In this document: in pieces, positions 55,512 through 57,009 of the stretch
How the letters are laid out: each line of letters begins with the position of its first letter
Numbering within the stretch: position 1 is the first letter of the stretch
Origin: Candidatus Magasanikiibacteriota bacterium
GTDB taxonomy: Bacteria; Patescibacteriota; Patescibacteriia; Magasanikbacterales; GWA2-37-8
Assembly (NCBI GenBank): GCA_963840935.1
Contig: CAWJAS010000002.1
Span: 71,333 to 135,332 of the forward strand
DNA length: 64,000 nt
Reading direction: 5' to 3'
Made by a program: the position numbers and the translations under genes
Notes under the pieces: model-generated
Database searches by the model: none
Told to the model about the DNA's origin: nothing
Seen by the model: the letters and a program-made list of their open reading frames with translations, nothing else

Positions 55512-55609
55512 TTCATCCTCCTTTTATTCAATCATTTTGTTTTTAATGAGCAAAAACCTCTTTTGATTCAAAATTGTAATACAGCTATTAATTGTTGTCA
55601 ATAAAAAAA

Positions 55610-55658
55610 GCCCCCGCGAAGATTACTCTCGGCGGGGGGCAGGAAAGGGCTATTTTTT
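55610..55658 (-). terminator. GC-rich hairpin plus T-tract: a terminator for a minus-strand transcript leaving the high-GC island
   Basis: The minus strand reads gcccccc-gccgagagtaatcttc-gcgggggc followed by ttttttt. Confidence 0.55.
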
Positions 55659-56498
55659 GTTTTGGTGTTTGGTGCGTGCGATTTTTTTTGACCACGATCG
55701 AGCACCCTCGGAACACCATCCTTCAGAGGCCATTGTCACTCGTTGATTTCCCCAACGAGCAAACTTACAGCTTGAAGGCAAACCGGCCTGTTTTTTGATT
55801 TCTGCAAGGACGAAGTGCGCGAGAAGCTGACATTTTAATCTTCTGGCGCGGGCGGTCCCAGAAACCAACTTACGGCAGGACAGGTCCTGCGACTAAATCG
55901 TCTTGCCCGGATTGTGGGGGCCGGCGTCAGCGCGCCGAGGCAGTTTGTATTCTATTTTTGTCATTGCGCCGTCTGCCTATGGCGCTCACGAGCTCAGTCG
56001 CATATTTCTCTCCCGGCCCGCATATGGGCCCGATGGAACCCCGCTCTTGTTTTGCTCGTTTGCCGTGCATACGGCAGAGGGGGTTCGCAAGCCCTTTCTA
56101 AATCAGAAACGAAATTAAGGTGCCGATTTGCTTAGGTTCGGCATCCGGGTGGATCTGCTTCCACTTGGCTCACAACTTATTGGCGGGGCGTGTGACTCCC
56201 CCTGTCATCTCCGGTATGGTTTTGGTTAGCAACGGTCGAGAACGCCCATTGCATACCTCCTTTTTTCGTTGAGATTTTCTTCTCACTATGCCCGACATTT
56301 ATGTCAGGCATAGAATTAAAGGCCGAGTTTCACGCGTTACTCGGCTTCGCGTCCACAGCGTGGATTCTCACAACTTACGGTATGTGACTCCGGCACGTTC
56401 ACGTGCGTTCGCAGGGTGATGTTATCCTTGCTACGGAAAGGGCATTTTGACCTCCTGTGTTCGTCGTTGGGGGTTGCATCAGTGGCCTGAGTTCTCTG
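55659..56498 (-). other. ~850-nt moderately GC-rich (about 52%) segment without long ORFs. It contains three imperfect copies of a ~30-nt motif. Candidate large structured RNA, or a decayed foreign sequence
   Basis: No ORF longer than ~70 aa in any frame. Motif copies: ccagaaaccaacttacggcagg (55855), ctcacaacttattggcggggcgtgtgactcc (56168) and ctcacaacttacggtatgtgactcc (56365). On the minus strand two strong RBS-like sites are followed by 4- and 7-codon ORFs. Strand is inferred from the flanking ORF and terminator. Confidence 0.3.
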
Positions 56499-56990
56499 CT
56501 ACGCCTCCGCCGTCTTCTTGGTGGCGGTGGCGGCCTTCCTCGCCTTCTTGCCAGCGGCGGGCTTCTCCTGCCTGGTGGCGGTGGGATGCATGGCGACGGG
56601 AGCCGGCGGGCCGACGATGAGAATCACGCTGTCCTCGTCCTCGACCATGTCGATGCCGACCAGGTCGGCGATCGTGGCCGTGTGGACCCGGCGTCGCGCC
56701 AAGCGCTCCGCCTCCTCCTGCGCCACCTCGAGCATCGCCTTCTCCACCAGGTCGTAACGGAAGGTGAAGCACTTGTAGGCGAGGTCCCTGGGGAGCTTGT
56801 CCTTCATCGCCCTGAGCTCGAGCCCGTGCTGGGGGCAAAGGGCGAACGCGGGCAGGTCGGCGAGCGTCACCTCGCGACCGAGCTTCGCCTCGACCACCTT
56901 GCGGTGGGGAAGCCAGCCCCTGGTCTTGTCGGTGATCGGCCGCCCGCACACGGAACACTTCATCTTTTCCATGAAAACCCTCCTTGTCAA
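56499..56990 (-). CDS. High-GC (~66%) foreign-looking ORF (163 aa): N-terminal Cys-containing zinc-ribbon-like region and a C-terminal Lys/Ala-rich basic tail
   Basis: MEKMKCSVCGRPITDKTRGWLPHRKV...ALCPQHG....C-terminal KPAAGKKARKAATATKKTAEA. Its codon usage is completely unlike the rest of the window. The plus-strand ORFs 56457..57047 and 56518..56757 are GC-driven shadows. Confidence 0.5.
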   Translation of the reverse strand: MTRRVFMEKMKCSVCGRPITDKTRGWLPHRKVVEAKLGREVTLADLPAFALCPQHGLELRAMKDKLPRDLAYKCFTFRYDLVEKAMLEVAQEEAERLARRRVHTATIADLVGIDMVEDEDSVILIVGPPAPVAMHPTATRQEKPAAGKKARKAATATKKTAEA

Positions 56991-57009
56991 AAAAATTTTG
57001 GGACTCGAA

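Follow-up and report, generated by a model that had tools for sequence, protein, structure and literature searches.

A GC-rich unit inherited within one Patescibacteria lineage and its putative dual-function structured transcript

To our knowledge, few large structured bacterial RNAs are known, and in Rfam and the literature we found none described from the Candidate Phyla Radiation (CPR). RNAIII/hld and SgrS/SgrT are dual-function bacterial RNAs, both coding and regulatory, and the hok family comprises toxin mRNAs that are stable and translationally inert. Here we analyse a GC-rich unit on the minus strand of a 64,000-nucleotide (nt) stretch of DNA from Candidatus Magasanikiibacteriota bacterium (GenBank assembly GCA_963840935.1, contig CAWJAS010000002.1, positions 71,333 to 135,332 of the forward strand), hereafter the window, whose first letter is position 1. 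The unit consists of a promoter, a 5' leader, a gene for a zinc-ribbon protein, a 3' structured RNA, and an intrinsic terminator. Its design appears closest to the OLE/Oap-type and dual-function RNAs, and the RNA family and the orphan protein family both appear to be new. As with OLE RNA and its proteins OapA, OapB, and OapC, and with GOLLD and ROOL (PMC12286853, PMC3413148), the RNA is large, multi-helix, and lineage-restricted, here 0.2-0.9 kb; as with OLE/Oap, it adjoins a lineage-specific protein gene, a plausible partner, and is G+C-rich in an AT-rich genome. Unlike OLE, GOLLD, ROOL, and HEARO, it matches no Rfam model and comes from a different phylum. It further departs from OLE in lying 3' of the protein gene, apparently on the same transcript, in carrying mini open reading frames (ORFs) led by Shine-Dalgarno (SD) sequences, and in a four-fold size range through gain and loss of modules; the zinc-ribbon protein, moreover, is unrelated to the Oap proteins and has no Pfam or NCBIfam match.

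Other described systems share single traits with the locus. As in RNAIII/hld and SgrS/SgrT, an ORF and extensive, conserved, apparently functional RNA structure lie on one predicted transcript, but the ORF is much larger than in RNAIII or SgrS (157 amino acids [aa]), the structure is mainly 3', and the composition of the coding sequence (CDS) is extreme. Like hok mRNAs, the predicted transcript would be compact and very stable, with long-range pairing predicted to mask the ribosome-binding site (RBS); unlike in hok, neither an antisense RNA nor an overlapping leader ORF was detected, and instead of a small membrane peptide the gene encodes a hydrophilic zinc-ribbon protein. Short upstream ORFs with R-L-type motifs, e.g., ErmDL (MRLR, with the +X+ motif), are drug sensors (PMC8298421). 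The locus likewise has very short, SD-led ORFs (MP[F/Y]x and MRLxx) in structured RNA by a terminator, but they lie downstream of the main gene, no resistance gene accompanies them, and the +X+ motif is mostly absent. With an acquired genomic island the unit shares sharp composition borders and foreign-looking codon usage; unlike such an island, it has an orthologous position clade-wide, with no donor homologs, mobility genes, or amelioration. Two of its traits are unusual: an extreme G+C content at third codon positions (GC3), apparently maintained by selection in a vertically inherited gene, and conserved mini-ORFs inside the RNA.

Our preferred reading, to which we assign a probability of roughly 55%, is that a lineage-specific unit makes a dual-function structured transcript or ribonucleoprotein (RNP). 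The GC content of 200-nt windows is 0.30-0.37 at 55400-55699, 0.485-0.70 across 55600-56999, and 0.35 at 57000-57199, confirming the abrupt shifts at about 55.6 and 57.0 kb described in a sequence-only reading of this DNA; its background value of ~38% GC was too low, as the window mean is 0.410. That reading considered recent acquisition from a high-GC organism, a small mobile element, or a chimeric assembly. Composition and codon usage are indeed as atypical as those of a genomic island (GC 0.49-0.70 vs 0.41; GC3 0.92 vs 0.41), but the patchy presence of a recent island is not seen: all the related contigs recovered have the unit at this locus. The conserved order is rpmF-nusB-rnc, the unit, a gene for a small membrane protein, femAB, and gyrA, and it recurs in the homologous loci that we numbered L001-L010, L015, L017, L020, L021, and L023-L031. 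At least 10 independent assemblies contain the same unit and junctions, which four sources (JGI, ENA, NCBI, and Logan) reproduce. Because the same junctions occur in the same slot in independent assemblies as well as in deep relatives, the unit is very probably neither a chimera nor a recent transfer.

Relatives of the zinc-ribbon protein are few. Among 5.8 billion clustered proteins there are only four close ones, on contigs from JGI, ENA, and Logan, and each of these contigs carries a high-GC unit in the same rpmF-nusB-rnc/femAB-gyrA slot. When 1.84 billion representatives were searched exhaustively with HMMER, eight clusters emerged, to which profile searches added a few more, and none with recoverable context lies outside this type of locus; every member with a readable contig adjoins rpmF, including an NCBI metagenome-assembled genome labelled 'Patescibacteria group bacterium' and a 732-kb contig. 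A protein-pattern scan of 185,579 GTDB species genomes found no relative, and searches of phages, plasmids, and viral contigs found no relatives of the unit. Identity falls across the loci from 99 to 77% for both NusB and L32, to 51-68% for FemAB, and to 24-31% for the zinc-ribbon protein. On this comparative evidence, the GC-rich unit is vertically inherited and restricted to one lineage of Patescibacteria (CPR), rather than a foreign island. Two apparent matches were set aside as chance: 64 nt of a Variovorax phage at 79.5% identity within the GC-rich CDS, and the DNA pattern CGTAARTTGGTTT..AGGCCGGYTT, which in genome and metagenome collections matches only L011-L014, with no further similarity.

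Between the window and L001, the synonymous sites of the flanking genes are saturated (synonymous divergence, dS, 0.8-1.4), and the dS of the zinc-ribbon gene itself is 0.55. Divergence from L002 is mosaic, with dS 0.02-0.16 in the immediate flanks vs dS 0.21 and nonsynonymous divergence (dN) 0.15 in the zinc-ribbon gene. The genomes are otherwise near-identical; nusB and the gene for the 72-aa membrane protein have dS 0.02-0.04, and femAB (window 54165-55178 vs L002 4790-5818) has dS 0.43. Such a mosaic around the locus suggests recombinational replacement of segments.

The zinc-ribbon gene occupies 56499..56972 (minus strand). The ORF earlier placed at 56499..56990, which opens with TTG, is present, but its 163-aa start is very unlikely; because AAGGAGG (56979-56985) lies 7 nt upstream of the ATG at 56972 and the close homologs P0001-P0004 all begin MEKMKC, that ATG is almost certainly the start, giving 157 aa. 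Third-position differences exceed those at first and second positions, and dN/dS is 0.3-0.7 vs 0.02-0.27 for the neighbours; judged by these substitutions, the gene is genuinely coding and fast-evolving. The odd codon usage noted earlier is borne out. GC at codon positions 1/2/3 is 0.65/0.45/0.93, and the GC3 of 0.92 makes the gene the sole, extreme outlier among 70 window ORFs of at least 100 aa (median 0.41, 95th percentile 0.57). Lysine is AAG in 15/15 cases and glutamate GAG in 12/13, vs 88% AAA and 84% GAA in window genes, and an index like the codon adaptation index is 0.43, below all 39 reference window genes (0.58-0.79). GC3 is 0.80-0.93 in all 10 orthologs with a downstream RNA, whose flanks are 37-49% GC; it is 0.85-0.93 in the window and L001 and 0.91-0.92 in L015 and L017, whose NusB proteins have 77-78% identity. 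In L020, the sole ortholog without the 3' RNA (only a terminator lies downstream), it is 0.50. The climb in GC starts at the start codon and not at the transcription start, the leader of ~150 nt being AT-rich. As a separate observation, each of the window's four tRNA genes reads a codon ending in G (Leu-CAG, 6815-6897; Arg-CCG, 54086-54160; Lys-CUU, 58935-59008; Arg-UCG, 60124-60196), and three lie within 4 kb of the GC-rich stretch; such a set beside a gene in which every lysine is AAG may be coincidence.

The CDS folds more stably than synonymous-codon shuffles in 11/11 orthologs (z -1.7 to -2.9), whereas eight control segments from the window range from z +1.25 to -1.9 (mean -0.3); folding yields about -0.47 kcal/mol per nt for the CDS vs -0.24 for nusB. 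Because all 11 ortholog CDSs outfold their shuffles, selection for a very stable, base-paired transcript appears to be the best available explanation for the GC-richness, with codon-level throttling of translation a likely companion effect. An overlapping second gene was rejected as the cause of the high GC3: amino-acid and codon composition fully account for the lack of stops in the antisense frame, and the stop-free stretch in the +3 frame is not conserved across orthologs.

Downstream of the gene, ~840 nt without a long ORF, as the earlier reading had it and the ORF listing agrees, form the 3' structured RNA (55660..56498, minus strand), which ends in the invariant CCAAACACCAAAA (55660-55672). 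That reading's suggestion of a structured RNA is supported by covariation. The z-score of the minimum free energy (MFE) is -5.7 vs shuffles. Homologous RNA lies downstream of the gene in L001, L002, L009, L010, L015, L017, L021, L023/26/27, L028, and L030, as found by nhmmer and the covariance model R1, with lengths from 219 to ~990 nt; neither the rest of the window nor the flanks of the other loci yielded a further RNA copy with R1. At gathering level, Rfam gave only tRNAs in the window and five homologous loci, and at E<=10 on 55400-57300 only noise, including miRNA-type matches to the long hairpin (best 23 bits vs a gathering threshold of 95); no Rfam model, be it of tmRNA, RNase P, a riboswitch, or a leader, matched the GC-rich stretch, and ARAGORN found no tmRNA. 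On the minus strand between the ORF and the RNA there is no promoter-like site, and the RNA is probably co-transcribed with the zinc-ribbon gene.

Even the 219-320-nt forms keep a core of an SD-led mini-ORF, a small hairpin, stem S1, a pseudoknot, two hairpins, and the terminator. A downstream AAGUUGUGAG, which is invariant, is able to pair with the S1 loop (A)GUCACAUA and so give an H-type pseudoknot. The window has two paralogous copies of this module A. Copy a (56289..56414, minus strand; H2, S1, H3, and H4) scores 65.6 bits with R1 (E 4e-20), and its pseudoknot strands are the loop UCACA at 56383-56387 and UGUGA at 56368-56372; copy b (56069-56211, or 56069..56249 with its mini-ORF, minus strand) scores 43.2 bits (E 1e-12), with pseudoknot strands at 56191-56195 and 56170-56174. 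L002 has only the copy-b type. The ctcacaactta..tgtgactcc repeat reported earlier belongs to these copies and is real, but its count of three is replaced by two full copies (plus strand, 56169-56199 and 56367-56391) and two partial GUAAGUU copies.

R1 found module A in 10 loci. Compensatory changes, looked for among the homologs, occur at 26/35 pairs in alignment A6, which was itself fitted to the covariance model; 0/500 shuffles reach 26, slid controls give 2-9, and 92% of cells pair vs ~42% with the partners slid. The S1 variants CGG/CCG, GGGG/CCCC, CUGGGG/CCCCAG, GGCAG/CUGCC, and AGGCG/UGCCU all pair, and the pseudoknot covaries from UCACA:UGUGA to UCACC:GGUGA in L030. Module A of L017 has 87% mean column identity to the window's close relatives L001, L009, and L010, vs 39% identity over 29% of the query for the L017 protein; by this comparison the 3' RNA is better conserved than the protein. 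The 3' domain (55709..56043, minus strand) is closed by a long-range helix of 56032-56043 with 55709-55721. In RNAalifold and pair counts on five close homologs, 90.9% of its cells pair vs ~40% when slid; its 16 compensatory pairs, vs 10.4 in shuffles, are reached in 6/500 shuffles, a more modest support than that for module A. Two other pairings were dropped: AUGCGACUGA with UUAGUCGCA, which is perfect in the window but lost in homologs and was rejected by inspection, and a GAGG/CCUU helix from RNAalifold, which is not conserved in the short-form RNAs.

Mini-ORF 1 (56431..56445, minus strand) follows AGGAGG by 6 nt and reads AUG CCC UUU CCG UAG (MPFP*). Its position is conserved in all RNA-bearing homologs, the product being MPFP* in the window, L001, L009, L010, and L021, MPFL* in L023, L026, and L027, MPYP* with a GUG start in L028, MPFY* in L030, and MHWPER* and MHWPAL* in L017 and L015, respectively. 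Proline is CCC, CCU, CCG, or CCA, the aromatic residue is UUU, UUC, UAC, or UGG, the start AUG or GUG, and the stop UAG or UAA; to judge from these coding-type substitutions, mini-ORF 1 varies as translated sequence does. A further SD-led mini-ORF lies in module A copy b (56226-56249, minus strand; MGVLDRC*). Mini-ORF 2 (55986-56003, minus strand) follows GGAGAG by 5 nt and begins AUG CGA CUG (MRLSS*). It takes the forms MRLSS, MRLMK, MRLKN, MRLMR, and MRLT, usually of five codons, among the window, L001, L009, L010, L017, L021, and L028; its translation appears less certain than that of mini-ORF 1. The resemblance to MRL-type macrolide-responsive or arrest peptides is at present only a lead, the +X+ motif occurring in one copy alone (L010, MRLKN).

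The intrinsic terminator (55603..55640, minus strand) consists of a G+C-rich hairpin at 55610-55640 followed by U7 at 55603-55609, in agreement with the minus-strand terminator reported earlier at the left end; it was read from the sequence and from the terminal hairpin of the fold, a simple terminator scanner having missed it. Every homolog has a hairpin and U-run at the same place, directly before the TTGACA promoter of the next gene. In the window this promoter, of the 72-aa membrane-protein gene, is at 55573-55601 (minus strand; TTGACA, 17 nt, TACAAT), its -35 box abutting the U-run, and a terminator-abutting promoter is conserved in all homologs. The ttgtcaa..aaaaaa sequence proposed as a shared edge of the element is accounted for otherwise: the left copy is this -35 box plus the terminator U-run, and the right copy is an A-run before the RBS that is not conserved (L002 reads TTTTTTGCAAGG).

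At the other end, the promoter of the unit (57127..57155, minus strand) has TTGACA, a 17-nt spacer, and a TG-extended TATACT, matching 11/12 consensus positions. Its sequence is conserved in the window, L001, L002, L015, L017, L020, L021, L023, L028, and L030, and transcription probably starts near 57120; a 9/12 candidate between the inverted-repeat arms (TTGATT..AATAAT) was dropped in favour of this conserved site at 57155-57127. The right-edge inverted repeat noted earlier exists and is longer than the 17 bp given, with 26-nt arms (57001-57026 and 57082-57107) that are 85% complementary. With a start near 57120, the repeat would lie inside the transcript and form a long hairpin in the 5' leader (56973..57120, minus strand; ~150 nt), which also contains a conserved UUCCUU at 57105-57110. 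There are two sequence types of the arms, with pairing retained in both, and of the four positions that are not Watson-Crick pairs, three form G.U on the minus-strand RNA. The leader folds strongly, with MFE z-scores of -7.3 for the window and between -4.3 and -10.2 for four distant homologs. The MFE structures of the window and L020 contain UUCCUU:AAGGAG pairing, which is weaker in some loci; these folds suggest that UUCCUU clamps the predicted RBS. Three distant relatives have an extra element, absent from the window, between the conserved promoter and the UUCCUU motif (L015 ~4700-4860, L017 ~4700-4850, and L020 ~1900-2040): a GAGAGAGG...CCUCUC pairing option and then a terminator-like hairpin and U-run, without an Rfam match. 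It looks like an attenuator or riboswitch.

As the earlier reading proposed, the protein has a cysteine zinc ribbon at its N-terminus and ends in a tail rich in Lys and Ala. Cys6-x2-Cys9 ... Cys46-x2-His/Cys49 makes up the conserved core, after which come helices, a helix of 30 residues, a beta-hairpin, and the disordered tail; AlphaFold (AF2) with 12 sequences gives a predicted local distance difference test (pLDDT) score above 85 for residues 1-96. No significant match was found in Pfam, PHROGs, NCBIfam, PADLOC, or PDB (best PDB sequence profile E 0.026, a zinc-finger stretch), and Foldseek found none for the first AF2 model (pLDDT 62); an LmuB match (E 0.001) by a single distant family member was disregarded. 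With eight clusters in 1.84e9 proteins, the family is an orphan. The protein may bind nucleic acid, a proposal made only because of the zinc ribbon and basic tail.

Put together, our preferred reading would run as follows. A strong, conserved promoter would drive a single, highly structured transcript of ~1.5 kb, comprising leader, gene, modular RNA, and terminator, the main product of which would be an abundant, long-lived structured RNA. The leader hairpin and 5' UUCCUU would clamp the RBS, and the G/C-ending rare codons would fold the CDS into a stable, base-paired transcript and probably also throttle translation, so that with clamped RBS, rare codons, and structured CDS the protein would be made sparingly. 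The protein may bind its own transcript, and the mini-ORFs, if translated, would engage ribosomes and couple the folding or stability of the RNA to translation status; an RNP or translation-sensing role for the unit is plausible.

Several observations weigh against this reading. The partnership of RNA and protein is seen as co-occurrence and adjacency, and L020 keeps the protein and leader without the 3' RNA; the protein therefore has no strict need of it. The excess structure of the CDS is modest, at about two standard deviations per sequence, the close orthologs do not count as independent cases, and two of the controls go as low as z -1.5 and -1.9. Third-position G and C swap freely among orthologs, which seems to suit a general GC or stability pressure better than fixed, specific pairs and would be equally compatible with codon-level regulation or with biased gene conversion at a recombining locus. 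At mini-ORF 2, the nucleotides AUGCGACUGA are invariant and the SD can join a long-range helix; the site could thus be structural rather than translated.

The alternatives differ in how they account for composition, mini-ORFs, and the fast-evolving protein. That the unit is, or formerly was, a mobile element, or is an assembly chimera or contaminant, is hardly credible: the abrupt composition boundaries and the inverted repeats near the right edge would fit, but the junctions are the same in independent assemblies from the four sources, the inverted repeat is a leader RNA hairpin with sense-strand G.U pairs and conserved with covariation, and no integrase or transposase is among the window ORFs at the unit, which is present in single copy, without homolog-conserved terminal repeats and without phage, plasmid, or viral relatives. 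Recent acquisition is contradicted by the single syntenic slot in all relatives down to 24-31% protein identity and by GC3 kept high in RNA-bearing orthologs despite saturated flanking synonymous sites. An ancient transfer of the gene, with or without the RNA, into the ancestor of the clade, the donor being a high-GC organism (an actinobacterial host, for instance) and amelioration unfinished, would explain codon usage like that of a high-GC organism (AAG, GAG, GCC, and CTC preferred) and the lower GC3 of some deeper branches (0.80-0.85, and 0.50 in L020); the Lys/Ala-rich tail also recalls what we take to be typical actinobacterial basic tails. We nevertheless judge it unlikely, given that no homolog was found outside the syntenic locus in either the representative proteins or the GTDB species genomes, that GC3 is still extreme in both the window and L001 despite their flanking dS and in L015/L017 despite their NusB divergence, that the GC climb is exactly at the start codon, and that the CDS has excess structure. 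Maintained GC3 from the start codon, rare codons, and fast protein evolution are also compatible with an exported, host-directed message whose codons suit a high-GC host (e.g., an actinobacterium that carries the epibiont) and which host ribosomes would translate, but we consider this a very long shot, and equally far-fetched the corollary that the extreme structure, 5' clamp, and SD-led mini-ORFs serve RNA survival and ribosome capture after transfer.

Two further readings assign the unit a regulatory or antagonistic role. The downstream RNA might be not a free-standing RNA but a cis-regulatory sensor of the leader-peptide type, in which ribosomes that translate, pause, or stall on the mini-ORFs remodel the pseudoknot module and so set transcript stability or terminator read-through into the membrane-protein and FemAB cell-wall genes. 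The coding-type substitutions and strong SD of mini-ORF 1, the minimal 219-320-nt forms (mini-ORF 1, pseudoknot, two hairpins, and terminator) directly before the next genes, and the precedent of short R-L-type drug sensors such as ErmDL (PMC8298421) all agree with this; however, the next gene has its own near-consensus promoter right after the terminator, no alternative antiterminator pairing was seen by inspection, without a systematic search, attenuators do not usually expand to ~900 nt with a closed 3' domain, and only L010 has the +X+ motif, which leaves the idea tentative and on balance doubtful. In the last reading, the protein is a tightly repressed effector (a toxin, defence, or host-interaction factor) with a stable, clamped, hok-like mRNA. 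Its high dN/dS relative to the neighbours, the mosaic divergence between the window and L002, and the predicted SD clamp, rare codons, and orphan, lineage-restricted family are what such a toxin-like or conflict module might show. Against it stand a hydrophilic protein that is not hok-like and, in the window, has no PADLOC match, no antisense promoter detected inside the unit, non-coding parts that are more conserved than the protein, and a fixed, single-copy locus that in every relative neighbours core translation genes, which is not typical of defence islands; it is, in our estimation, improbable.

The locus offers a concrete, covariation-supported RNA family, whose core can be as small as ~220 nt and has expanded naturally to ~900 nt. 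Moreover, GC3 near 0.9 is sustained at a fixed locus in genomes of 35-48% GC across deep divergence, so that inferring horizontal transfer from composition can mislead; it would seem that, across a whole gene, the mutational bias of the genome can yield to RNA-level selection or another local force. The conserved ORFs of 4-7 codons in structured RNA also allow coupling between ribosomes and RNA to be tested in organisms whose translation machinery is reduced.

Three minor features of the neighbourhood were recorded. In the window, rnc (RNase III; 58020-58790, plus strand) is split into overlapping ORFs of 188 and 120 aa by one extra base, near 58544, relative to L002 (CCAGAAAATCC vs CCA-AGAATCC); this is an error of sequencing or assembly, or else a true frameshift or a pseudogene. 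The 3' end of tRNA-Lys(CUU) with its terminator (CCCAGGCGACCCACATAATTAAAAAAACGCACAAAGTGCGGTTTTTTATTT) occurs twice within 58935-59240 (plus strand), at ~58996-59047 and ~59186-59237; the copies flank ~140 nt of ~58-60% GC, a second, smaller GC-rich patch in the window, and the arrangement resembles an att-type duplication with a small insert between the copies, or a tRNA-like fragment. Finally, GyrA of the 732-kb relative (L028 8397-12068, L029 5503-9174) contains an intein (PF14890) and is 1223 aa long, vs 825-832 aa in L001-L003.

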